A DNA stretch of 56,759 bases, from the IMG/VR virus record IMGVR_UViG_3300016484_000735, positions 78,418-135,176 of that record, one strand, 5' to 3'. A program made the position numbers and the translations under genes. The DNA comes from a virus. Shown here one piece after another: positions 6,820 to 44,946 of this stretch (the first letter of the stretch is position 1; every line of letters starts with the position of its first letter). The notes under the pieces are model-generated. The model was not told the DNA's origin, did not search any database, and was given only the letters and a program-made list of their open reading frames with translations.

Positions 6820-9567
6820 ATGGCTAACAATGTGAACTTCAAGGTCAAGAACGGCCTTGTCATCGGGGGCGATGCGTACCTGAACAACGCTTCGTATCTC
6901 CACGGGAAGTTGCTGAACGGCACGGACACTCGGATGTTCGGCATTAACTCAGCGAACACCCTGTACATCGGATCGATCGACACCGCCACTGGCGGCGATT
7001 GGATCTTCATCAACGGCGCTGAGCGGATGCGGATCAATGCTGCTGGCACCGTCCGCATCAACACGGCGTCGAACCTGAACACAAACGCTCAGTTCAGTGT
7101 ATACGCTTCCGACCAGAAGGTCATGGAGCTGTACTCAGGCGGGTCGTTGACTCGTCTGATGCTAGCGAACGACAACAACCTGAACACAATCGATTCGAAC
7201 AACGGCGCGCTCACGTTCAACTACAATCCTGGCACGCTGACTGAAGCCGGTCGATTCACCGTCGGTGGCGCGTTCACGGTTGGTCGCACCTCACAGTACG
7301 CAACGTACGACATCGCTTCGTTCGAGAAGAGCGCGAATGCCGATTACGGTATCTCGATCAGCAACCAGAACTCGACGGCTGGCTCGTACGCCCGTCTGAC
7401 GCTTGGCGCGTACGGTGCTGACTGGAACCTGCGCGTTGGTGCCGCCGCAACGAACAACACGGCGTTCACGATTGGACGTGCGGCAGTCGAGATGCTGCGC
7501 ATCACCTCAGCTGGCAACGTTGGCATCGGGACCTCAAACCCAAGCGAGCAGCTGCATCTTGGGCGCGCCACGTACCCAACGCTGAAACTCGAAGAAACTA
7601 CGACCGGTAATGTGGTTCTTCTGCAGCACCATTCTGGCGCCAGCGAGACTCAACTGACGGTGGTTGGCGCGTACCCGCTTGTGTTCAAAACTTCCAACAT
7701 CGAGCGTCTGCGGATCTCGGCGGCAGGCAACGTTGGCATCAAGAATATTTCGCCGTCGCATACTGTTGACATCGGGCAATCAACAGATGCAACAAACGAA
7801 CTCTACGTGAATGCCGCAGCATCTGGTGTTGCCCGCGTGTATGCGAACACGTGGGGTACTTCGTCTGCAGCGCTCGTTGCGAACAACTCTTCAAGCGCAA
7901 CTGGCGACGGTGTTCCAGCGAACACATTGGGTATCGCTTTCAACGGCGGCCTCCCAGCAACGTTCGTTGTGAATGCTGTAGAGCGGATGCGCATTGACTC
8001 ATCGGGCAACGTCGGTGTTGGCATCACGCCGAAGACTTGGGGTAGCGACTACCGCGCCGTGGAACTTGGCACCTACGGCCGTCTGTACTCGTCGTCCAAT
8101 GGGAAGACCGGCTTCGCAGCTAATGCGACATTCAACGGCACGAACTGGATTGCTGGCATCACAACCGTAGGTTCGCTGTATGAACAGCCGTTGGACGGAA
8201 GTGGTCACGTCTTCTCCACAGCGGCCAGCACCACGGCCGGCGCGACGATGACGTTCACAGAGCGGATGCGCATCGACTCGTCTGGCAACGTCGGCATCGG
8301 GACGTCGGCACCGACTCGCGCGCTTCATGTTCGCGGCACAGCTGCAAGCGCATCCATCGAAAACACCAGCACTGCAGCTGGGGACTTTGTCGATCTTGCT
8401 ATTGTTGGCAATGACACTACCGGCCGATTCTCAGCATACGGATCTCAACACAGCTCACGAGCCAATCAAGTATGGTTGAATGCTAATACAAGTTCTTCGC
8501 TTGTACTTGGGACCAACAATACAGAGCGGGTGCGCATCACATCGGCTGGCGATGTTGGCATTGGCACTGGATCACCGCAACGGAAGCTCCACGTGGTCGG
8601 CGATGCCGGCATCGCCGTGTCTGATACCGCAACCGGTGCAATCACAACTCTTGCGGCGACAACTACCGTCACGTCGATTGATTGCTACACCACGAATGTT
8701 GCTGGTCAAGCCTTTGTGGTTCGCACGAACAGTACTGGTGGTACTGGTACAGCAGAGCGGTTCCGCATCACATCTACAGGTCAGATCGGTATCAACACCT
8801 CGCTGCCGTCATTTGACTTCGATCTGCAGAAATCACAGAATGCTGCATCGGTGATGCGCGTGTACAACGGGAACACCGGCGCTTCTGCATCCTCGGTGAT
8901 CGTTGCGCAGTCTGACACAGTGACGTTGAACATGTTCGCGAACGGTTCTGGGAACACTCTCGGATCGGTCGCATCGCTGGCTGGTATTCAGGTCACCACG
9001 AACACACCGTTCGGGATCTGGACGAACAACGCTGAACGCATTCGAATCACGGCTTCGTCTGGCTACATTGGCATCAACGGGAATACGAACGGTGTAGTTG
9101 CTGGGCTGCAACACCAACTGGCTCTGTATCACGCTGGTGCGAGCTCAGTGTACGGCATCGGCATCCGTGCGCTGAACAACTCGACGACCACACAGGCCCT
9201 GACGTTCGCGAACGCGTCTGATGCCCAGGTCGGTTGTGTCTCTGTCACCGCTTCGGCAACCACGTACTCGACGACTTCCGATCGCCGCCTGAAGGAGAAC
9301 GTCCAGCCGGCTGGATCGTTCGGTTCGAAGATCGATCAGATCGAGGTCGTCTCGTTTGATTGGAAGGCGGATGGGAAGCATCAAGAGGCCGGGTTCATCG
9401 CTCAAGACCTGTACAAGGTCGCTCCTGATGCTGTCCACGTCGGCGATGCTGATGACGTTGAGGTGCTGAAGCACACCTGGGGTGTCGATGCTTCGAAGCT
9501 CGTACCGATGCTGATCAAGGAAATCCAAGAGCTGCGTGCACGCGTCGCTGCCCTCGAAACCAAGTAA
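6820..9567 (+). CDS. Tail fibre with repeated ERMRI-x-SSGNVGIG modules and C-terminal intramolecular chaperone (peptidase S74-like)
   Basis: Many TERMRIDSSGNVGIG repeats; TSDRRLKEN..GFIAQD..LIKEIQEL at the C-terminus. Confidence 0.9.
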   Translation: MANNVNFKVKNGLVIGGDAYLNNASYLHGKLLNGTDTRMFGINSANTLYIGSIDTATGGDWIFINGAERMRINAAGTVRINTASNLNTNAQFSVYASDQKVMELYSGGSLTRLMLANDNNLNTIDSNNGALTFNYNPGTLTEAGRFTVGGAFTVGRTSQYATYDIASFEKSANADYGISISNQNSTAGSYARLTLGAYGADWNLRVGAAATNNTAFTIGRAAVEMLRITSAGNVGIGTSNPSEQLHLGRATYPTLKLEETTTGNVVLLQHHSGASETQLTVVGAYPLVFKTSNIERLRISAAGNVGIKNISPSHTVDIGQSTDATNELYVNAAASGVARVYANTWGTSSAALVANNSSSATGDGVPANTLGIAFNGGLPATFVVNAVERMRIDSSGNVGVGITPKTWGSDYRAVELGTYGRLYSSSNGKTGFAANATFNGTNWIAGITTVGSLYEQPLDGSGHVFSTAASTTAGATMTFTERMRIDSSGNVGIGTSAPTRALHVRGTAASASIENTSTAAGDFVDLAIVGNDTTGRFSAYGSQHSSRANQVWLNANTSSSLVLGTNNTERVRITSAGDVGIGTGSPQRKLHVVGDAGIAVSDTATGAITTLAATTTVTSIDCYTTNVAGQAFVVRTNSTGGTGTAERFRITSTGQIGINTSLPSFDFDLQKSQNAASVMRVYNGNTGASASSVIVAQSDTVTLNMFANGSGNTLGSVASLAGIQVTTNTPFGIWTNNAERIRITASSGYIGINGNTNGVVAGLQHQLALYHAGASSVYGIGIRALNNSTTTQALTFANASDAQVGCVSVTASATTYSTTSDRRLKENVQPAGSFGSKIDQIEVVSFDWKADGKHQEAGFIAQDLYKVAPDAVHVGDADDVEVLKHTWGVDASKLVPMLIKEIQELRARVAALETK

Positions 9568-9576
9568 GGAAACAAA

Positions 9577-11220
9577 ATGGCTACTAACAAGGACTTCAAG
9601 GTCTCACAAGGGAACATCGTTGGTAACGGGTTCCGTGCTGCACAAGGCGTACCGTCGAACGGCGACGGTTCTCTGAATGGGTACGCATTTGGGGTGGACG
9701 GCGACACTGGTCTGTTCTCGCCTGGCTCAGGTGGCGGGAACGGTGCCCTCGCATTCTTCACGAACAACACCGAACGCGTTCGCCTCACAGCCGGCGGCCA
9801 GTTCGGTATCGGTACTTCGGCACCGTCGCAGCTTCTGACCGTCGTTGGCACCACTCCGTACATCCGCCTGGAAGACGCGTCTGGAAGCGCGAAGCGTCTT
9901 GACCTGTCGGTCGACTCCACCGGTGTTGCGACGATCGCGGCGAACCAGTCGGCTCAGCAGCTCGTGTTCCAGACAGTTGGCGCTGAGCGGATGCGCATTG
10001 ACTCATCGGGCAACGTCGGTGTTGGTGCGGTCCCTGTAGCTGCGCTCAACGGTGTCCTGGTTCATCGCTCTTCTGGTACTGCGAACATTGTCGTGAACTC
10101 CACCGATGCGACGATGTACTCCAGCATCCGCCTGAACAACGGGAACGCAGCGCCAGCCGCGGTCGGCTGTGCTCTGCACCACATGGGTGCGTCGTACCCG
10201 GCAGGTTCTGAGTACGCTCCAGACGGCTCATCGCTTACCGGCTTCGGCAGTAACGGCTTGTTCCTGAACGCATGGCATTCAACCGGGACGGTAAAGATCA
10301 CCACGGCCAGCGTCGAACGGATGCGCATTGATTCGTCGGGTAACGTCGGTGTTGGCACGACAGCGCCAGGCGCAAAGCTTGACGTGAATGGGCAGCTTCG
10401 TGCCCCAACAGTGATTCTGGCACGGAACGATTCTGGCAATGAGGGCGGTGAGATCGTCTTCAACGAGCCGAATAACAACCTCCGAGCTTTTGCTCTTGAC
10501 TGCTACGGCGCGAACGTTCTGAATGGATCTCAAACGTCTTCATTCCGGTTGTTCTCGACGACAGCGGCAACTACCCCAGTGAGTACTGAGCTGCTTTCGG
10601 TGTCCATGGCTGGGCAGCTGAAGATGAAGGTTGGTCCGATCTCGGTGTACTCGCCGACCACTACTACCGTCGGCGGTATCATGGGCATCGAGAACGCTGC
10701 CGATACCTTCACCGTCGACACGAATAAGGTCCTGTCTCATTACGGCCTCACTTGGAAGAGTCTCTCAGACAACGCTGAACTCCAAGCGCATCTTTCGTCG
10801 TACGGTGGCCTGAACTTCTACGCGGCTGGTGCTCTGCGCCTCAAGGTCGAGACGAACGGCGCCGTCCGTCCTGGCACCACACAAGCACAGACACTTGGCT
10901 CTGCGGCGTACCGCTGGTCGACGATCTATTCTGACCAAGCGCTGAACGTTTCGTCGGATGAACGTCTGAAGCACGACATTCAAGACATCACCGAAGTTGA
11001 GGCTCGCGTTGCGACGCGTCTGAAGAGCCTCGTGAAGACGTATCGTCTGAATGTGGATCCTTCGAAGAAGCAAGTCGGTGTGATCGCGCAAGAGGTCGTG
11101 GCGGCATTCGCCGCCGAAGGCTTGGATGCTCTTGATTACTCAATCGTATCGATGGGCGAAGACGGAATGTACGCGGTCTGCTACGATCCGCTGATCATGT
11201 TCATGTTCTCTTCACTCTGA
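9577..11220 (+). CDS. Tail fibre with C-terminal S74-like chaperone
   Basis: ERMRIDSSGNVG repeats; SSDERLK..GVIAQEV. Confidence 0.9.
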   Translation: MATNKDFKVSQGNIVGNGFRAAQGVPSNGDGSLNGYAFGVDGDTGLFSPGSGGGNGALAFFTNNTERVRLTAGGQFGIGTSAPSQLLTVVGTTPYIRLEDASGSAKRLDLSVDSTGVATIAANQSAQQLVFQTVGAERMRIDSSGNVGVGAVPVAALNGVLVHRSSGTANIVVNSTDATMYSSIRLNNGNAAPAAVGCALHHMGASYPAGSEYAPDGSSLTGFGSNGLFLNAWHSTGTVKITTASVERMRIDSSGNVGVGTTAPGAKLDVNGQLRAPTVILARNDSGNEGGEIVFNEPNNNLRAFALDCYGANVLNGSQTSSFRLFSTTAATTPVSTELLSVSMAGQLKMKVGPISVYSPTTTTVGGIMGIENAADTFTVDTNKVLSHYGLTWKSLSDNAELQAHLSSYGGLNFYAAGALRLKVETNGAVRPGTTQAQTLGSAAYRWSTIYSDQALNVSSDERLKHDIQDITEVEARVATRLKSLVKTYRLNVDPSKKQVGVIAQEVVAAFAAEGLDALDYSIVSMGEDGMYAVCYDPLIMFMFSSL

Positions 11221-37337: not shown

Positions 37338-37589
37338 ATGCCAAGTTTCGAATCGACCCCGCAGTACATCGAGAAGCACAAGTTCGTGAAGAACCCGCAA
37401 GTTCGTCGTGAGACGTTCAATCCCGAGAACGACGCACACGTTGCCTCGTTCCGTTCGTTCGTCGCCACCGGGAACTGGGGCGACGTGATGTTCTTCAGCG
37501 AGTTCCCGCACACCACGGTGCCATCGACCGTCACTGCGAAGTACCTGCGGTACATGCTCGGAATCACGGATGCAAAGTCTTCGAACTGA
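37338..37589 (+). CDS. Hypothetical protein
   Basis: GAGGA RBS; overlaps the next gene by 20 nt. Confidence 0.7.
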   Translation: MPSFESTPQYIEKHKFVKNPQVRRETFNPENDAHVASFRSFVATGNWGDVMFFSEFPHTTVPSTVTAKYLRYMLGITDAKSSN

Positions 37590-38130
37590 ACTGAACGACC
37601 GCATCCTCCGGTTCGACGGGATCTCGATCATCGAACCGGAGCTGGCTGCCAAGGCTCTCGTCCGCGGCATCCCGCCTTCTGCCCTCCGTGTCTCTCACGT
37701 CACGGAGGAGATCGCGTTGTTCAACGCGCAAGTCACTGAAGCGGAGCAGATCCTCGAGGCTACCGATCACCCGGTGGTCCTCACAATGGACTGGCTCCTG
37801 CCGGAGTCGTATCAAGACCTCGATCTTGACGCATACGTCCTAGGTCTGTTCGAATCGAAGCTCCAGAAGTTCGCAGCGAAGTACTCAGAAGCTGAACTCG
37901 AAGAAGCGATTCAGCGTCTTGACCTCGAGCTTCACGAAGTGAAGCGACGCGGGATGTCTGAGTTCTTGAAGACGATCATCTACATCCTCGACACGTTCCG
38001 GGCGAACGATCAGGTCTGGGGTGTCGGCCGCGGATCCTCTTGCGCTTGCTACATCCTGTACGTCCTCGGATTGCACTCGGTCGATTGCATTCGGCATCAG
38101 ATCCCGATGACCGAATTCTTTCACGATTGA
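37570..38130 (+). CDS. DnaE (Pol III alpha)-like N-terminal palm fragment
   Basis: RL..EL.....G....L......D.......WGVGRGSS....LY.LG...VD...Q.P..EF matches the DnaE GPGRGS..AYAL.IT..DP....FERF region. Confidence 0.8.
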   Translation: MQSLRTELNDRILRFDGISIIEPELAAKALVRGIPPSALRVSHVTEEIALFNAQVTEAEQILEATDHPVVLTMDWLLPESYQDLDLDAYVLGLFESKLQKFAAKYSEAELEEAIQRLDLELHEVKRRGMSEFLKTIIYILDTFRANDQVWGVGRGSSCACYILYVLGLHSVDCIRHQIPMTEFFHD

Positions 38131-38190
38131 AATTCTAGGCATAAATATAGAGCGGTCTCATGCCGACCGTGAACACGTGGAGAACTATAC

Positions 38191-38424
38191 ATGGCGCACA
38201 GGATTCGTTCCGCTCGCGGTGAAGTCGTCGACTTTGAACTGCTGGCAATCAAAGCACAACTCGCAGCAACTCCGGCCCCGAAGGTCGTTGAAGAACGGAA
38301 GCAAGCGATCGATGAGAAGGACGGTGTTCGCACGGACGTCGTTCAGGACGTCGACTTCCTCTCTGCTTCCATCGAGGCTGCCTCGGCTTCTGCTTCCGTC
38401 GGGAAGCAACTCAAGAAGAAGTGA
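38191..38424 (+). CDS. Hypothetical protein
   Basis: GGAG RBS; late promoter at 38142. Confidence 0.7.
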   Translation: MAHRIRSARGEVVDFELLAIKAQLAATPAPKVVEERKQAIDEKDGVRTDVVQDVDFLSASIEAASASASVGKQLKKK

Positions 38425-38466
38425 TCTTCTTCTGAACCATACCCATACATCATAAGGAACTTCCAC

Positions 38467-38796
38467 ATGGCAACGATTCGACCACTGAACAACAACATCA
38501 TGTTCCAGTTCCTGGAGCAGACCGGAGGCAAGAAGGGCGTATTCCAAGAGGACGCTCGCGCTTCCGGAATCATCATCGTTGCTTCGAACGACAAGCAGAA
38601 GGTTCATCGCTGGGCAGAAGTCCTGGCAGTCGGACCGAAGGTCGACGGCGTCGTCCCTGGCGACTTCATCCTGATCGAAGCGCTGATGTGGATGGAAGGC
38701 ACTGAGGTCGACGGCGTTCGCATGTGGAAGACCGACGATTCGAAGGTTCTGGCAGTCACGAACGATCGAGCGTCCTGCCAGGCCCAAGCTCTCTGA
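38467..38796 (+). CDS. groES: Co-chaperonin GroES-like
   Basis: IRPL, SGIII mobile loop, AEVLAVGP, V.PGD.IL, ..D..VLAV. Confidence 0.8.
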   Translation: MATIRPLNNNIMFQFLEQTGGKKGVFQEDARASGIIIVASNDKQKVHRWAEVLAVGPKVDGVVPGDFILIEALMWMEGTEVDGVRMWKTDDSKVLAVTNDRASCQAQAL

Positions 38797-38826
38797 TTGA
38801 TCCGCTGCGGCGGGTGAAAGTCCCAG

Positions 38827-40152
38827 ATGTTCTTCGCACTTCTCACGTTCTTCGCAGCGTTCTCCATCGAATTCCTCGGCACGTACGTGTCGGTGATCGG
38901 GCTCTCGGCCCTGTTCGGGTCGAACCCTGTGATCATCTCGCTTGCCATCGGTCTTGACCTTGGCAAGCTCATCGTCGTTTCGCTCCTGTACAAACACTGG
39001 GAGCGCCTTGGAGTATTCATGCGTTCGTACGCCCTCGTTGCTGCCATCGTCACGATGGTGATTACTTCTGCTGGTGCTGCTGGGTACCTTTCTGGCGAGT
39101 TCCAGAAGGCGATCACCGGCACACAAGAGATCACTCTTCAAGTTGATACGCTGAAGGCGCAGCAAGCGAAGTACGAAGAGCGGAAGAAGCAGATCGATGA
39201 TCAGATCGCTGCGATCCCTGAGAAGTATTCGGCGAACCAACGCATTCGCCTGATGAACCAGTTCAAGGCTGAGCAGGCAGACCTTCAAGCTAAGATCGCG
39301 AAGATTGACACCGAGCTGCCAGAACTTCAAGCGAAGCAGATCAGCGTGAACGCGAAGGCCGGACCGATCCTGACGATCGCGAAGTCGTTCGACATCACCG
39401 TTGAAGAAGCGATCAAGTGGGTGATCGCTGCCGTGATCCTCGTGTTCGACCCGTTGGCAGTGTTCCTCGTGATCGCCGGGAACTTCCTGTGGCGTCTGTA
39501 CAAGGAGACACCGAAGGAACAGCCGAAGCCGCTCGTGCCTGAAGAGCTGGTTGTTGAAGCCGAAGCTGTGCCAGCCACACCAATCGTCCTGCCGGAGCCA
39601 ATGCCAGAACCAGCCCCGAACCTGGTCGCTGACGGGACGCTTCGTCCGAACGGTGATGTGATCGAACGGTTCGAGGATGGTGAGTGGAAGCCAATGGAAC
39701 TGCCGAAGGCGAAGACGTTCATCCGTCAGCGTCGTACTGTTCCTCGTCGTGAGCGGAAGTTCATCGGACCGGTCGTGAACGGCGTCCCGCTGGCAGAACA
39801 GCCGGAAGCGGTCATCGAAGCGCCAATCATTGATCCGGTCGTCGAGGCGCCAGCGGACGCACCAGTACCGGTGATCGATGCCGAGCCGATCACAGCTGCG
39901 CCAGCCGTCGCCGAAGTAGCGGCTGCTGCCGAGCCGACATTGAACCCGATCGTGAAGCCGGAGGTCCATCCGATCCGTCGCACGATGGTGAACGCGAACG
40001 GCGTCCGCGTGCCGGTTCGTGACGTTGAACCACAGCGCGAGCAGATCACGCTGTCATCGCTCGGTGCCGTGAAGGCAGATCCAAAGACGATCACGGATGT
40101 CGGCGCGTTGGATCCGTCGGTCCGACCAGACATCTTCCCGCCGAAGGGTTGA
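38827..40152 (+). CDS. Multi-pass membrane protein with coiled coil and Pro/Ala/Glu-rich tail
   Basis: Three N-terminal TMs, a coiled coil, and a VFDPLAV TM. Confidence 0.75.
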   Translation: MFFALLTFFAAFSIEFLGTYVSVIGLSALFGSNPVIISLAIGLDLGKLIVVSLLYKHWERLGVFMRSYALVAAIVTMVITSAGAAGYLSGEFQKAITGTQEITLQVDTLKAQQAKYEERKKQIDDQIAAIPEKYSANQRIRLMNQFKAEQADLQAKIAKIDTELPELQAKQISVNAKAGPILTIAKSFDITVEEAIKWVIAAVILVFDPLAVFLVIAGNFLWRLYKETPKEQPKPLVPEELVVEAEAVPATPIVLPEPMPEPAPNLVADGTLRPNGDVIERFEDGEWKPMELPKAKTFIRQRRTVPRRERKFIGPVVNGVPLAEQPEAVIEAPIIDPVVEAPADAPVPVIDAEPITAAPAVAEVAAAAEPTLNPIVKPEVHPIRRTMVNANGVRVPVRDVEPQREQITLSSLGAVKADPKTITDVGALDPSVRPDIFPPKG

Positions 40153-40226
40153 TCCTGGATCGAGGTTCGTACCCCAACCTCAATGGGGTACAATGTTTCT
40201 GTACATCAACTTTCTAAGGTTTGCCA

Positions 40227-41141
40227 ATGATCAACAAGGTCTGGGTCGAGAAGCATCGCCCGCGTTCTGTCGAGAACGTGATCATGCCCGACGAACGCAC
40301 GCGTAAGATCTTCGCTGGGTACGTGAAGTCCGGCGAGATCCCGAACATTCTGATGTACGGCGGTCCCGGCACCGGCAAGACATCGATGTCACAAGCGCTG
40401 ATCCGTGACCTGGGCGTCGAGAAGATGGACGTCCTGAAGGTGAACTGCTCGGACGAGAAGATCGACGCCCTCCGCGACAAGGTCAAGGGGTTCGCTACCA
40501 CGATGGCGATGGGGAAGTTCAAGGTCGTCCGCCTCGAGGAGTTCGACTATCTGAACCACGAAGCACAAGCGCTGCTTCGCGCTCTGATCGAAGAAGTCTC
40601 GGGTTCGTGCCGGTTCATCGCGACGTGTAACTACATCGCGAAGGTCACCCCGCCGCTCCGCTCCCGCTTCCAAGAGTTCCAGATCTCGGCACCGGCTCGT
40701 GAAGACGTGATCGTGCTCGCTGCCGAGATCCTCGAAGCCGAGGGTGTGAAGTTCAAGGAAGCAGATCTCGAGAACGTCGTCGCTGCTGCGTACCCCGATG
40801 TCCGCAAGATGATCCAGCTCCTCGAGGGTTCCTCGATCAGCGGGAAGCTCGTGCTCGGTTCCGCCGATGCCGTGGCTGACTGGAAGCTGGACCTGCTGCC
40901 TGCGCTGGAAGCTGGTGATCTGGCTGCCGCTCGGAAGATCGTGTGCGAATCGGCGACCGAGCAAGAGCTCGGCGAAGTGTACCGGTTCCTGTTCGACAAC
41001 ATCCATCGGGTGAAGAAGCTCAAGGGCAAGATCGATGACGCGATCGTTCTGATCGCCGAGTACCAGTACAAGCACGCGTTCGTCGCCGACAAGGAGATCA
41101 ACGTCGCTGCGCTGTTCATCGAGATCGGGATGCTGGCATGA
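40227..41141 (+). CDS. Clamp loader AAA+ subunit (gp44/RFC-like)
   Basis: WVEKHRP, GGPGTGKT, EEFDYL, ALLRALIE, CRFIATCNY, LRSR. Confidence 0.92.
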   Translation: MINKVWVEKHRPRSVENVIMPDERTRKIFAGYVKSGEIPNILMYGGPGTGKTSMSQALIRDLGVEKMDVLKVNCSDEKIDALRDKVKGFATTMAMGKFKVVRLEEFDYLNHEAQALLRALIEEVSGSCRFIATCNYIAKVTPPLRSRFQEFQISAPAREDVIVLAAEILEAEGVKFKEADLENVVAAAYPDVRKMIQLLEGSSISGKLVLGSADAVADWKLDLLPALEAGDLAAARKIVCESATEQELGEVYRFLFDNIHRVKKLKGKIDDAIVLIAEYQYKHAFVADKEINVAALFIEIGMLA

Positions 41142-41332
41142 CCGTGAACCTCACGTACTTCCGGATCGCCGAGATGAAGATCGTGCATGGTGATACCGGT
41201 TCGATCGCTGAACAAGTGAACAACATGATCGCTCAAGGCTGGCAACCCTGGGGCGATCTGATCGTCAAGAACGGAGCGCTGATTCAGGCGCTCGTGAAGC
41301 TGGAACCCCTGCGAGGAGAAGATGATGAGTGA
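41138..41332 (+). CDS. Small protein (DUF1737-like)
   Basis: VN..IAQGWQPWG...QA.VK pattern. Confidence 0.6.
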   Translation: MTVNLTYFRIAEMKIVHGDTGSIAEQVNNMIAQGWQPWGDLIVKNGALIQALVKLEPLRGEDDE

Positions 41333-41612
41333 GATGATTGACCACGGCGACCACCAGCACACGCCTGAAGAAATGATGCGCGCGTACGCTATGGAAGCGA
41401 TGCAGCTGGCTGATCGAGTTCAGTCGCTGTCGTTCTCGAACGCGATCCTCCGTCGTGCGCTGCACACCGTCCTAACTCGGAACGGCGAGGACCTTGTGAA
41501 CGTTGATCTGGGTGAGCTCTCGTCGCTGATGACGGATGACGAAGGCGACGAGATCCGCATCGTCTCGTTGTACGTGAATGGCGACGAGATCGACATCCGA
41601 AAGGCTGACTGA
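41322..41612 (+). CDS. Hypothetical protein
   Basis: Overlapping ORF; GAGGAG RBS. Confidence 0.6.
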   Translation: MMSEMIDHGDHQHTPEEMMRAYAMEAMQLADRVQSLSFSNAILRRALHTVLTRNGEDLVNVDLGELSSLMTDDEGDEIRIVSLYVNGDEIDIRKAD

Positions 41613-42154
41613 TGGCGAACCCGTTCGTTGAAGACGTCGCTGGTCCGGCGGCAGCTCTCTCGCGTTCGGGTGGTCTGACCTGGTTCGACGGGCTCTCCGA
41701 GGAGAAGCAGAAGAAGCTCTCGGTGTTCATGATCGCTCGGATGATGGCCGGGACGAACGACCCGGTGCACCTGATCCGTCTGAACACTGTGTTCAACCCG
41801 TACCACTTCGGCGACAAGGCGAACGGCGTCCTGGACCTGCGGAAGCAGGATCAGATGAAGCTGCTCGCCGTGGCTGCGAACCACGGTCGGAAGGTCTCGT
41901 ACCGCTGGATCAAGGGACCAGGTCGAAAGGCCTCGAACACCGTGCTAGAATGCATCTGTCAGTACTACGAATGTTCGGCCCGTGAGGCAGCTACATACAA
42001 GGTACAGGCTGAGACCCTAGAACAGATGGCAGAAGAGCTCGGCTGGGACAAGGACCAGATCGCGAAGCTCAAGAAGGAGTGTGACGATGGATCGGGAAGC
42101 GCTGCGAAAGCAAGCAGCAAGCCGGCGAAGCCGGGACGTGGAAAGCGAGCCTGA
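41612..42154 (+). CDS. Possible clamp loader small subunit (gp62-like)
   Basis: F..L...QKK.S.FM..R.M and YYECS.REA..Y; position near gp44. Confidence 0.5.
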   Translation: MANPFVEDVAGPAAALSRSGGLTWFDGLSEEKQKKLSVFMIARMMAGTNDPVHLIRLNTVFNPYHFGDKANGVLDLRKQDQMKLLAVAANHGRKVSYRWIKGPGRKASNTVLECICQYYECSAREAATYKVQAETLEQMAEELGWDKDQIAKLKKECDDGSGSAAKASSKPAKPGRGKRA

Positions 42155-42839
42155 GGCACCGAAGAAGCCGGTGTGGCGGTGCGAGTTCTGCGCACGTTCC
42201 TTCGTGAACGAGACACCGTTCATGAACCATCGGTGCAAGGAGCGTGAACGGATCGAAGAACTGAAGGGTGCGATCGGGCAGGCAGCGTACGCTCACTACA
42301 GTGAGTGGATGCGCTCGTCGAAGAAGAGCGTCCCGCCGATCGAGACGTTCGCGACTTCGAAGCTGTACAGCACGTTCGTGAAGTTCGCAGAGCACGCAGC
42401 GAAGACGAACATCCCGAACGTGAAGCAGTTCATCAAGCTCATGATCTCGCACGGGAATGTGTCGCCGGCGCTGTGGTGTCGTGACAACGTGTACGCGATG
42501 TACCTTGAGTGGTACGATGAAGCGTACCCCCCAGAGGTCCAGGTGCTTGAGTCTCTCGAGTTCTTGAAGGAGCTCGTGAAGGACTACGATGCGACACCGG
42601 CGACTGTGTTCAGCGAGGTCCCAGTGGACACGCTGGTCACGCACATCAAGCGGCGCAAGATCAGCCCGTGGTTCCTGGCATCGTCGAAGGTGTTCCGTGA
42701 CCACACTCGCACGTGCCCGCCAGAGGAGAAGGATAAGCTCGAACGAGCGATGAACATGGGAGCGATGATCGCTCGGATTCAGAAGGACGCGGGTCTGTTC
42801 GCGTTCTTCAACCGAGTCACTCTGTCCGAAGGGTTCTGA
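42087..42839 (+). CDS. Zn-finger replication-cluster protein
   Basis: CEFC..F......HRC near the N-terminus; ISPW motif. Confidence 0.65.
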   Translation: MDREALRKQAASRRSRDVESEPEAPKKPVWRCEFCARSFVNETPFMNHRCKERERIEELKGAIGQAAYAHYSEWMRSSKKSVPPIETFATSKLYSTFVKFAEHAAKTNIPNVKQFIKLMISHGNVSPALWCRDNVYAMYLEWYDEAYPPEVQVLESLEFLKELVKDYDATPATVFSEVPVDTLVTHIKRRKISPWFLASSKVFRDHTRTCPPEEKDKLERAMNMGAMIARIQKDAGLFAFFNRVTLSEGF

Positions 42840-43078
42840 TGCCGCAGCGGATGTTCAGAACGATGCCGCCGGATGTCGCGAGGTTCTACCACACGATCGT
42901 GAATCGCGCGCTCCTAAACATTCTCGCTGTGAAGCTCGGGATCTTTGATACAATCTTCTGTCAGTCGGTTGATCCGACAGTGTACTCTCGCTGGGAGCAG
43001 AAGCTGCCAGGAATTTTGACCGAGATCGAACTCAGACAAGGACCAGCAAGTGGACGTAGACGTCGACGTACCGACTAA
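42839..43078 (+). CDS. Hypothetical protein
   Basis: TGATG coupling; overlaps the next gene by 29 nt. Confidence 0.5.
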   Translation: MPQRMFRTMPPDVARFYHTIVNRALLNILAVKLGIFDTIFCQSVDPTVYSRWEQKLPGILTEIELRQGPASGRRRRRTD

Positions 43079-43622
43079 CTTCGATTCGATGAAGGTGTTC
43101 CCGAAGTGGACGCGGGCTGCCGTGGTTCGTGACGGGAAGATCACATCGCATCCGTGCGGTGTGTACCCACAAGCGATCCCACGCGATCCGATGACCTCGT
43201 TCAGTGCGATCCCGTACACCGAAGCCGAAGAGCTCGGGTACTTGAAGGTCGACTTCCTGCACGTGTCAGCGTACAACAAGTTCAAGTCCCGTCAAGAGAT
43301 CGACGAGCTCATGGACAAGGAACCCGACTGGTCGCTCCTACAGATCAGCTCAACTTGGTCGAAGCTCTTTCAGCTCTCGAAGCACGGCGAGCTTCTGTCG
43401 AACCTGAAGCCGAAGACGATCGCCGAGCTCGCGGACTGCATGGCGTTGATCCGTCCAGGCAAGAAGGCACTGCTCGGTCTGTACATGAAGAACCGAGCCG
43501 AGGCACGTAAGGCACTGTACTCGAAGGACGAGAACGGGTATAGCTTCAAGAAGAGTCACGCGTTCGCGTACGCGTACGTGGTGTGGCTACAACTGCACCT
43601 GATCGAGCAGGGTCGTCTGTGA
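43050..43622 (+). CDS. DnaE (Pol III alpha)-like catalytic palm/fingers fragment
   Basis: DVDVD, HPCGVY, GYLKVDFL, LFQL, ALIRPG, GYSFKKSHAFAY. Confidence 0.85.
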   Translation: MDVDVDVPTNFDSMKVFPKWTRAAVVRDGKITSHPCGVYPQAIPRDPMTSFSAIPYTEAEELGYLKVDFLHVSAYNKFKSRQEIDELMDKEPDWSLLQISSTWSKLFQLSKHGELLSNLKPKTIAELADCMALIRPGKKALLGLYMKNRAEARKALYSKDENGYSFKKSHAFAYAYVVWLQLHLIEQGRL

Positions 43623-43696: not shown

Positions 43697-43876
43697 ATGA
43701 AGCTCAGTCGCAAGAAGCGTGAACGGATGCTGGAGATCCTGCAAGGCAAGGTTCCAGTGAACGAGATCACCGACAAGGAGATGCAGTTCTTGCAAGAGCG
43801 GATCATGGAAGGCATCGCCGTGAAGCGTGCCGAGGCCCAACAAGTCGTCTTCCGAGAACACAGGACACTGCAATGA
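43697..43876 (+). CDS. Hypothetical protein
   Basis: Short basic ORF after promoter copy 5; ATGA overlap with the next gene. Confidence 0.6.
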   Translation: MKLSRKKRERMLEILQGKVPVNEITDKEMQFLQERIMEGIAVKRAEAQQVVFREHRTLQ

Positions 43877-44946
43877 AATTCGTACCCACTGATGGCAAGG
43901 ACGTGATGTTCGTTGTCGAGTACGGCTCGAAGCTGTACGGCACGAACACGCCGACTTCCGATACCGACTACAAGGTCGTGTACCTGCCGGACCTGAGCGA
44001 CGTGCTGCTCGGCAAGAAGATGGTGAGCACGAAGGTTCGCTTCGACGCCGAAGGCAAGAAACTCACCGACGACAACCAGCCGATGCCGGCGAACGGCGTC
44101 GAATGCGAGTTCGTTCCGTTCCAGACGTTCGTCCGTGAATTCGTCCGTGGCCAGACGTACGCTGTGGAATGCGCGTACGCTCTGCTGACGCAGGGCCCGA
44201 GCGCGCCGGATGCGGCGTCGGTTCGTGAACACGAGCTGCTCGTCGAGATGGTCGATCGGTTCTCGAACTCGAGCGTGTACTCGATGGTCTCGTTCGCTCA
44301 GAAGCAGACGTTCGACTACGTTCGTCGCGGTGAGCGGAAGGCCGAGGCCGAGCTCGTTCTGGCTGCGTTCGACACGGTGCTCTCGGTGTTCGACAAGAAC
44401 CAGTCGGCCTCAGCCTCGAAGTTCGAGCCGCGACTCGATACGCCGTGGAACGGGAAGACCGTGCTGGATCACGTGGTCTCGGTCACCGGCCTGAAGGTCG
44501 GGCAGTCGGTGAACAACAACAAGGCTCAACGGACTCTCGAACTGAACGGGCGGAGCTACCTCGAGTCGACGACGGTGCGTCACGTTCGTGATCAGGTGCA
44601 GAAGACCGTGGGCGCGTACGGTGACCGTACCGATGCCGCTTCGAAGAAGGGTGTCGACACGAAGTCGCTGAGCCACGCGGTTCGCGTGTACCAACAGTCG
44701 CTGGAACTCCTGGCGACCGGGAAAGTCTCGTTCCCGCGGCCGAACGCTGCTGAACTGCTCGCGGTGAAGCAAGGTGTCACGCCGCTGGAAGAAGTGAAGA
44801 AGCTGCTCGTCGAGCTTGACGATCAGGTGCTCAAGGCGCAGGCTGAGTCGACGGTTCGTCCTCGGACTCCGGAACTGGAGGCTGAAGCTGAACAATGGCT
44901 GCTTGGAGCGCTTCGAGAGCTTTACGATCTTCCGAAGAGCGCTTGA
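43873..44946 (+). CDS. Pol-beta-fold nucleotidyltransferase (RlaP-like)
   Basis: YGSKLYGTNTPTSDTDYK (GS..DxD); D.K...HAVR..Q..ELL.TG...FPRP. Confidence 0.8.
   Translation: MKFVPTDGKDVMFVVEYGSKLYGTNTPTSDTDYKVVYLPDLSDVLLGKKMVSTKVRFDAEGKKLTDDNQPMPANGVECEFVPFQTFVREFVRGQTYAVECAYALLTQGPSAPDAASVREHELLVEMVDRFSNSSVYSMVSFAQKQTFDYVRRGERKAEAELVLAAFDTVLSVFDKNQSASASKFEPRLDTPWNGKTVLDHVVSVTGLKVGQSVNNNKAQRTLELNGRSYLESTTVRHVRDQVQKTVGAYGDRTDAASKKGVDTKSLSHAVRVYQQSLELLATGKVSFPRPNAAELLAVKQGVTPLEEVKKLLVELDDQVLKAQAESTVRPRTPELEAEAEQWLLGALRELYDLPKSA

Follow-up and report, generated by a model that had tools for sequence, protein, structure and literature searches.

A probable split minimal DNA polymerase III alpha of group 2.2 jumbo phages, encoded by two genes that bracket clamp-loader genes

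We analysed a 56,759-nucleotide stretch of IMG/VR virus record IMGVR_UViG_3300016484_000735 (positions 78,418 to 135,176; hereafter the window), and found that two of its short genes encode adjacent parts of a family C DNA polymerase core. These genes are probably the two halves of the split minimal DNA polymerase III alpha (Pol III alpha) of group 2.2 jumbo phages, whose products would act together as an accessory, template-directed heterodimer. We confirmed homology of the halves to family C polymerases, conservation of their motifs, co-occurrence of the two genes, purifying selection on both, the existence of natural fused forms and the Pol III alpha-like fold of one such form. The split enzyme is already known from a 2021 sequence analysis (Iyer, Anantharaman, Krishnan, Burroughs and Aravind 2021, Viruses 13:63, PMC7824862), and the window provides a further example. 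An earlier note on this DNA had said of the pair that no function had been demonstrated, which is fair, although the split enzyme itself had been published. The window covers the last 56.8 kb (3' end) of a viral contig of 135 kb with a CheckV completeness of ~43%, and the two genes are as follows.

37570..38130, + strand: N half of the minimal Pol III alpha (ATG start, 186 amino acids; PF07733, phrog_11127)
43050..43622, + strand: C half of the minimal Pol III alpha (GTG start after AAGGA, 190 amino acids; PF17657, phrog_11778)

Both open reading frames (ORFs) lie where the earlier note had placed them and have the termini that it quoted, the N half ending in ...GVGRGSSCACYILYVLGLHSVDCIRHQIPMTEFFHD and the C-half protein beginning with MDVDVDVP. 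Their proposed identity as halves of one family C core is upheld by two Pfam families, a pair of PHROGs and profile alignments to PDB structures. In the N half, Pfam PF07733 (DNA_pol3_alpha) is recognised over profile positions 9-94 of 260 (E = 2.6e-10) and phrog_11127 ('DNA polymerase', 171 positions) over positions 3-170 (E = 5e-32). Profile searches against solved structures place this half on residues 286-392 of E. coli Pol III alpha, and hhalign aligns it with DnaE 315-393 at a probability of 95.6%. The protein is laid out as an N-terminal domain of ~80-100 residues followed by a helical part of the palm that carries WGVGRGSS, the GS (NTP-binding) motif of Pol beta-type nucleotidyltransferases. 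W-GVGRGSS is invariant in the aligned N halves (n = 30 sequences), with invariant columns spanning G151-S157, and every one of these sequences stops at ...EF(F/I)(H/K)D. The C-terminus of the N half in the window (...EFFHD) falls directly ahead of the catalytic DxD. TEFFHD occupies the place of FERFLNPER in DnaE, and the FERF..ER arginines are not kept, as had been remarked.

The C half matches Pfam PF17657 (DNA_pol3_finger; E = 8.7e-5) and phrog_11778 ('DNA polymerase', 197 positions) at positions 7-193 (E = 1e-59). Its residues D2/D4/D6 and K66-x-D68 make up the metal-binding Asp triad, its thumb is a stub and its fingers are trimmed. By profile search against solved structures, its DxD corresponds to D463/D465 and its KVDFL to K616/D618 of Taq Pol III alpha, while its FQL, RPG and FNKSH align with the corresponding finger motifs of that enzyme. 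Across the aligned C halves (n = 24 sequences) 56 columns are invariant, including D2, D4, D6, K66 and D68. Thus, all three catalytic Asp equivalents are kept, in agreement with the first reading of the sequence. Equally invariant are the finger motifs R135-P136-G137-K138 (RPGK) and F166-K167-x-S169-H170 (FKKSH). In DnaE and PolC, RPG(K) and F(K/N)KSH contact the incoming nucleotide, and the His of the KSH motif is the sugar steric gate.

Outside these motifs the core is strongly reduced. The PHP, HhH and OB domains are gone and the thumb has ~50 residues as against ~140, with 28 residues between DVD and HPCGV, all much as the earlier note described. The gap from DxD to KxD is ~60 residues (~150 in DnaE), and the C half terminates 20 residues past KSH, with nothing beyond the KSH helix. 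The fingers had been described as largely lost, and this holds for the stretch from RPG to KSH (~25 residues versus ~100 in DnaE) but not for the key motifs RPGK and FKKSH.

Natural single-chain forms of the enzyme connect the two halves directly. Three of them (P0338, P0386 and P0387; 375-376 amino acids) come from three metagenomic samples and have the two parts joined by a linker of 9 residues. In P0338 (375 amino acids), residues 9-181 match the N-half profile (hhalign probability 99.7%) and are followed by the linker, DFDID and the remaining C half; the P0386 and P0387 clusters have 376 amino acids and 78-81% identity. Such forms are rare, accounting for 2 of the 150 best representatives and for 3 clusters at 90% identity. 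An AlphaFold2 (AF2) model of P0338, built on a correctly registered alignment (A6) of fused forms and both half-families, is compact, with a predicted local distance difference test score (pLDDT) of 88 and a predicted template modelling score (pTM) of 0.85. All 17 of 17 significant Foldseek matches to this model are family C polymerases. With VIA-align it superposes on Mtb DnaE1 at Z 21.8 (347 of 375 residues aligned, root-mean-square deviation (rmsd) 5.4 A), on the Taq Pol III alpha ternary complex at Z 20.3 and on PolC at Z 18.0, and the next fold after family C reaches Z 4.1. This Rosetta-stone evidence from a modelled homolog strongly implies a single Pol III alpha-like core made up of both halves, and so gives weight to the heterodimer that the earlier note had put forward. 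Because the termini of the halves are flush with DnaE and the fused forms need a linker of 9 residues, there is no room for intein parts, and the statement that the pair has no intein stands.

The genes for fused forms were located at L092:1066-2193 and L094:519-1649. As their nearest relatives are stand-alone C halves (206-222 amino acids, 51-59% identity), the joining of N and C parts looks, from these sequences, like a secondary fusion.

A further single-chain minimal Pol III alpha, P0380 (336 amino acids; L093:1516-4181), was found on an 8-kb JGI metagenome contig. It lacks the N-terminal ~75 residues and has the variant motifs LLRGSGGAS and DYDIE, and no relatives of it were found in IMG/VR. 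Its gene overlaps by 4 nucleotides with the end of a gene for a 552-residue protein with a PF03090 Replicase match (E = 2.5e-13) and a helix-turn-helix. Judging from this gene content, the element may be a small replicon with the minimal enzyme as its main polymerase.

We also considered whether the N-terminal domain of the N half is a relic of the PHP domain, an idea raised by an eyeballed motif resemblance and by the fused-model superpositions, which begin at DnaE residues 9-15, the first PHP residues (DnaE, PolC). No PF02811 match was found, hhalign of N-half residues 1-80 against the DnaE PHP domain returns a probability of at most 0.2%, and in a full-profile comparison of the N half with DnaE the palm alone aligns and the PHP region does not. 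We therefore rejected the candidate, and the modelled superposition remains a weak hint of a PHP relic without sequence backing. Such a relic would favour reduction from a full DnaE over the ancestral status proposed in 2021.

The two halves occur together, and widely. In tblastn searches against isolate-phage records, the C half was found in 96 records and the N half in 94, with equal genus-level counts; carriers include Rak2-like and PA5oct-like phages, XacN1, Atu_ph07 and RsoM2USA. The distance between the halves in isolate phages ranges from 4 kb to ~180 kb, and is 4.9 kb in the window. The best isolate match is RsoM2USA, at 48% identity for the C half and 34% for the N half. An exhaustive profile search, with representative clusters at 50% identity, recovered 618 clusters, nearly all of 185-215 amino acids, and the C half is encoded on >594 IMG/VR stretches. 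The cut point and the lengths are alike across >600 clusters, with aligned N halves ending, and C halves beginning, at the same place; this pattern is far beyond chance.

To these counts can be added the ratio of non-synonymous to synonymous substitution rates (dN/dS), for which the references were L095, a 98%-identical relative, and L096, a syntenic locus. The C half has a dN/dS of 0.028 versus L095 (41 synonymous and 5 non-synonymous differences) and 0.24 versus L096, and the N half has 0.28 versus L096; the clamp loader encoded nearby has 0.20 versus L096. Judged by these ratios (0.03-0.28), both halves are functional genes under purifying selection. With the 96 and 94 records from the same genera, the halves also co-occur in relatives, a point that the earlier note had wanted checked.

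Taken together, these observations lead us to propose the following arrangement. The halves would associate non-covalently into one Pol beta-type palm, for which the N half would supply a helical scaffold and the GS (triphosphate-binding) loop. From the C half would come the strands bearing all three metal-binding aspartates, along with what is left of the thumb and with shortened fingers that keep RPG(K) and F(K/N)KSH. The resulting assembly of ~376 residues is predicted to be a template-directed DNA polymerase. With the thumb nearly gone and the clamp-binding, HhH and OB domains all absent, its intrinsic processivity would be low. Its genes are expressed from the module that also encodes the clamp loader, and it would be accessory to the family B replicase of a T4-type replisome, and might serve in primer extension, on one strand, or in recombination-dependent or repair synthesis. 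End-tailing, which had been listed among the possible activities, is disfavoured by the invariant nucleotide-binding finger motifs, which argue for templated dNTP polymerisation instead.

The setting of the genes agrees with the T4-type replisome that had been read from the sequence, as the window encodes a gp32-like single-stranded DNA-binding protein, UvsX, UvsY, a UvsW-like helicase, ribonucleotide reductase, dCMP deaminase and clamp-loader subunits. Every one of the five relatives with complete or near-complete genomes (RsoM2USA, XacN1, PA5oct and, from IMG/VR, genomes of 332 and 364 kb) encodes a family B polymerase, in open frames of 880-934 amino acids and, in PA5oct, in pieces. Thus, the claim that the minimal enzyme is not the replicase is best kept in the form that it is probably not the only polymerase. 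Neither a PHP nor an HHH_6 domain was found in the five relatives, and the window's own contig, ~43% complete, has a single PF07733 match; within this scope there is no sign of further fragments that would rebuild a full DnaE. In PA5oct, the family B polymerase (NC_071039.1, 217618-221395) appears as three Pfam matches in two frames (825 and 379 amino acids), by which the replicase of this phage is also encoded in pieces.

Several points weigh against this interpretation. No family A or B polymerase was found in the window's own 135-kb contig (searches included PF00136), which is estimated to be ~43% complete, and the accessory role is therefore argued from relatives. The fold model derives from a fused homolog that is ~26-35% identical and not from the window's own proteins. 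The thumb and the domains that bind the DNA duplex and the clamp are absent, such that productive primer-template binding is not assured, and the conserved FERFLNPER arginines are substituted in the N half. Additionally, the N-terminal ~80-100 residues of the N half match no domain of assigned function. Biochemical or genetic work on any member was not found, the literature having yielded the 2021 sequence analysis only, and nothing beyond Iyer et al. was found on the split minimal Pol III alpha after 2021.

The halves bracket a block of genes that is itself conserved, and the annotated neighbours are listed here.

37338..37589, + strand: 83-residue ORF, overlapping the N-half start by 20 nucleotides
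38191..40152, + strand: three conserved genes 3' of the N half, syntenic in 20-25 related loci, comprising the next three entries
38191-38424, + strand: 77-residue ORF, a module gene
38467-38796, + strand: GroES/gp31-like protein of 109 residues (phrog_931, phrog_3188)
38827-40152, + strand: 441-residue protein, a conserved module gene
40221..41141, + strand: clamp-loader large subunit, a T4 gp44-like AAA+ ATPase (phrog_168, E = 6e-79; Pfam AAA, E = 9e-15, and Gp44_lid)
41612..42154, + strand: probable clamp-loader small subunit, gp62-like (phrog_225 'clamp loader', E = 2.5e-4, a weak match)
42081..42839, + strand: p252, a protein of 252 residues, between the clamp-loader small subunit and the C half (phrog_11058, E = 6e-39)
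42839..43078, + strand: 79-residue ORF, its start overlapping the p252 stop (TGATG), and overlapping the C-half start by 29 nucleotides
43873..44946, + strand: RlaP-like nucleotidyltransferase of the Pol beta superfamily (phrog_388, E = 3e-50; Pfam RlaP, E = 3.5e-8)

The gene order of the clade runs from the N half through the 77-residue ORF, the GroES-like protein, the 441-residue protein and the clamp-loader large subunit to small ORFs, the clamp-loader small subunit, p252, in some cases the 79-residue ORF, the C half and the RlaP-like nucleotidyltransferase. Synteny of the three genes at 38191..40152 extends to RsoM2USA, XacN1 and PA5oct. Clamp-loader genes had been placed between the halves from the start, and the matches to phrog_168 (40221-41141) and, weakly, to phrog_225 (41612-42154) support this. 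The gene at 41612..42154 lies directly upstream of p252, a position kept in 26 loci, and in Rak2-like records the gene adjoining p252 is annotated as the sliding-clamp-loader small subunit. The RlaP-like gene, the second nucleotidyltransferase of the block, is directly downstream of the C half, as it is in 26 related loci. Promoter and terminator scans of 36.5-45.1 kb gave matches no commoner than in shuffled sequence. A minus-strand ORF of 594 residues (38185-39969) runs antisense to the 441-residue gene (38827-40152) and its neighbours and is most likely spurious, as is common in GC-rich DNA.

The small ORFs upstream of each half had been noticed as overlapping it, which they do, and had been considered as possible companions. 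The 83-residue ORF has matches in 11 loci, not always beside the N half (as in L016), has a dN/dS of 0.66 versus L096, and gives no Pfam or PHROG match. Homologs of the 79-residue ORF occur in 9 loci and in L095 and L096, and are missing where p252 abuts the C half; its dN/dS is 0.55 versus L096. Both ORFs are real small genes, each limited to one clade and weakly constrained. We rejected such ORFs of ~80 residues as general partners of the halves, given their presence in 9-11 of the 83 related loci used for neighbourhood counts, their absence where the genes abut and their dN/dS of 0.55-0.66. Marine-type loci (L044-L086) have a conserved ORF of ~77 residues (LSKIDLE..DGD.AV.IK.DGSIG.VIMP...) between p252 and the C half, which occupies the same slot and has no sequence similarity to the 79-residue ORF of the window.

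Another conserved neighbour is p252. It has an N-terminal, invariant C2H2-type zinc finger (C34, C37, H50, C52), an SPW motif and an all-helical body, which AF2 models with a pLDDT of 91. It occurs in 93 phage records of the same genera as those with the halves, and its dN/dS is 0.14 (versus L096). Of the 83 loci, 73 have it immediately 5' of the C half, a count inflated by closely related marine loci; in XacN1, CM1, G001, G003 and G004, it is found beside the clamp loader, 10-27 kb from the C half. Sequence searches matched nothing in Pfam, its own family alone in PHROGs and the zinc finger alone in PDB profiles. Foldseek searches against the PDB gave nothing, and the best match in a wide VIA search had Z 5.2 over 62 residues; BFVD holds one unnamed homolog and the ESM Atlas unnamed viral clusters alone.

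A faint resemblance to gp59 was seen (PDB 1c1k; Z 4.1, rmsd 12.4 A), together with BFVD rows named 'DNA helicase loader' at probabilities of 0.82 and 0.28 (E = 0.23 and 1.7). Pfam and PHROGs give no gp59-type sequence signal in p252, and the gp59 domains PF08993 and PF08994 have no match in the five relatives. The faint structural rows and the lack of a recognisable gp59 in these relatives suggest that p252 could have a different replisome role, as a helicase loader of the gp59 type. The 73 of 83 adjacencies had suggested p252 as a specific partner of the C half, a candidacy that we downgraded because p252 stays with the clamp loader in several lineages, also where the C half is distant. Its link is thus to the module and not specifically to the C half, and p252 is a fixed member of the module and a candidate partner only.

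Two observations on individual genomes concern these genes. In IMG/VR contig L031 (8005-10564), the N half (8754-9236) lies between p252 (8005-8742) and the C half (10004-10564), so that the halves are nearly adjacent yet still separate genes. In a complete 363-kb IMG/VR jumbo-phage genome, that of L041, the p252 homolog (G001:C1:221609-222337) has three in-frame TAA codons, which could reflect a broken gene, a boundary artefact or recoding.

We weighed the split accessory polymerase against other explanations. Two short ORFs that match adjacent parts of a large gene look disrupted at first sight, as if they were decaying fragments of a broken dnaE or parts joined by protein trans-splicing, as in the split-intein DnaE of cyanobacteria. 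This is contradicted by the data and almost certainly wrong: the cut point and lengths are constant in >600 clusters, both halves are under purifying selection with invariant active-site residues, the termini carry no extra residues of intein halves, the fused forms have a 9-residue linker, and the halves stand up to 180 kb apart in relatives. We also think it very unlikely that the pair is a nucleotidyltransferase with another product, whether an untemplated tail, RNA or a primer, or a signalling or anti-defence nucleotide. In favour of this, many nucleotidyltransferases without a role in replication have a Pol beta-type palm too, the thumb, HhH and OB parts that bind DNA have been lost, and an RlaP-like nucleotidyltransferase lies directly downstream; however, RPGK and FKKSH, the finger motifs of family C, do not vary, steric-gate His included, Z scores of at least 12 were obtained for family C polymerases alone (other nucleotidyltransferases reaching at most 4.1), and the genes lie in a replisome module.

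Closer to the accessory polymerase are explanations that give the enzyme a larger part or further subunits. DnaE and PolC share the fork in Bacillus, and gene 43 follows the clamp-loader genes in T4. By analogy, the minimal enzyme might be a true replicase for one strand that shares the fork with the family B polymerase and gains processivity in trans through the clamp or p252. The halves do lie inside the clamp-loader module, with the C half after the clamp-loader genes in the manner of T4 gene 43; constraint on the C half is very strong (dN/dS 0.028), the enzyme is present clade-wide, and one fused form stands beside a PF03090 Replicase gene on a small contig, where it may be the main polymerase of a replicon. 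Yet the enzyme has no clamp-binding, HhH or OB domains and its thumb is a stub, neither half has a proofreading domain, and all complete relatives have a full-size family B polymerase. Additionally, no clamp-binding motif was identified, the conserved C-terminal QLHLI belonging to a helix whose equivalent in the DnaE alignment is a structural one. We therefore consider a one-strand replicase unlikely.

That p252 is a third subunit, which would replace the lost DNA-binding or tethering functions in a heterotrimer, is a tentative idea that we hold to be rather improbable. It is favoured by p252 directly preceding the C half at 73 of 83 loci, among them distant ones (marine-type, PA5oct, Atu_ph07 and a Vibrio phage) in which the N half and clamp loader are far away, by a phage distribution that matches that of the halves (93 versus 96 and 94 records), by a C2H2-type zinc finger that could bind nucleic acid, and by strong constraint (dN/dS 0.14). 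Against this, XacN1, CM1, G001, G003, G004, L039 and L040 have p252 beside the clamp loader and the C half 5-27 kb away, the adjacency count is inflated by closely related marine loci, and no p252 relative stands beside the fused forms, which are on short contigs. The faint gp59-type resemblance, with no recognisable gp59 in the five relatives, also suggests another replisome role.

A broader and likewise improbable version is that the whole block, from the N half to the clamp loader, p252 and the C half, encodes a modular complex in which the minimal polymerase is the catalytic part. If so, p252 and perhaps the phage clamp would give in trans the DNA-binding and tethering functions that DnaE holds in cis, and a family C polymerase would have been rebuilt from separate parts, at a fork where it works beside a family B enzyme.

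On the reading that we prefer, a split minimal Pol III alpha acting as an accessory polymerase, the enzyme is the smallest known family C polymerase core and a rare case of an active site apparently assembled from two chains with separate genes. The phages that have it possess a eukaryote-like family B replicase as well. Should the enzyme be active, it would show what the bacterial replicase family needs at a minimum for catalysis, and would raise the question, posed already in 2021, of why giant phages keep two unrelated polymerases. The practical value of the window lies in its being a compact, syntenic example, accompanied by fused forms that could be expressed as one chain, a confident model and a conserved zinc-finger neighbour.

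Among known systems, the closest is the 'minimal, split DNA polymerase III alpha' that Iyer et al. 2021 (PMC7824862) described as a hallmark of group 2.2 jumbo phages. They reported it from phages that have a family B polymerase too, suggested a possible part for it on one strand or in repair, proposed that it is an ancestral form, and stressed its 'distantly located genes'. The enzyme of the window is like theirs in its N-terminal NTP-binding part, its C-terminal Mg- and template-binding part and its cut point, in the lack of other Pol III domains and, judging from its relatives, in its occurrence in T4-like jumbo phages with a family B polymerase. In contrast, the phage of the window is an uncultured relative, and the halves in the window and the RsoM2USA-like clade are 4.9 kb apart and bracket the clamp-loader genes. 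Mention of the p252 neighbour or of natural fused forms was not found in Iyer et al. 2021.

With DnaE, Pol III alpha and PolC (PDB 2hnh, 2hpi/3e0d, 5lew and 3f2b), the enzyme has in common the Pol beta-type palm, the GS motif, the DxD and third Asp, and the RPG and KSH finger motifs, and the model of the fused homolog superposes on them at Z 18-22. It differs in having ~376 residues in two chains instead of 1100-1450 in one, and in lacking the PHP, beta-clamp-binding, HhH, OB and tau-binding domains. In cyanobacteria, DnaE is encoded by two distant genes with split-intein parts and is trans-spliced to a full-length protein. The likeness to that system is of a family C polymerase from two separate genes, whereas the enzyme of the window has no intein, is cut inside the palm (the cut being elsewhere in cyanobacteria) and is minimal. 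The single-chain forms P0338, P0386, P0387 and P0380 have the domain content and motifs of the halves joined end to end, and differ from the enzyme of the window in being one polypeptide, rare in nature, in which a 9-residue linker spans the point where the split enzyme is cut.

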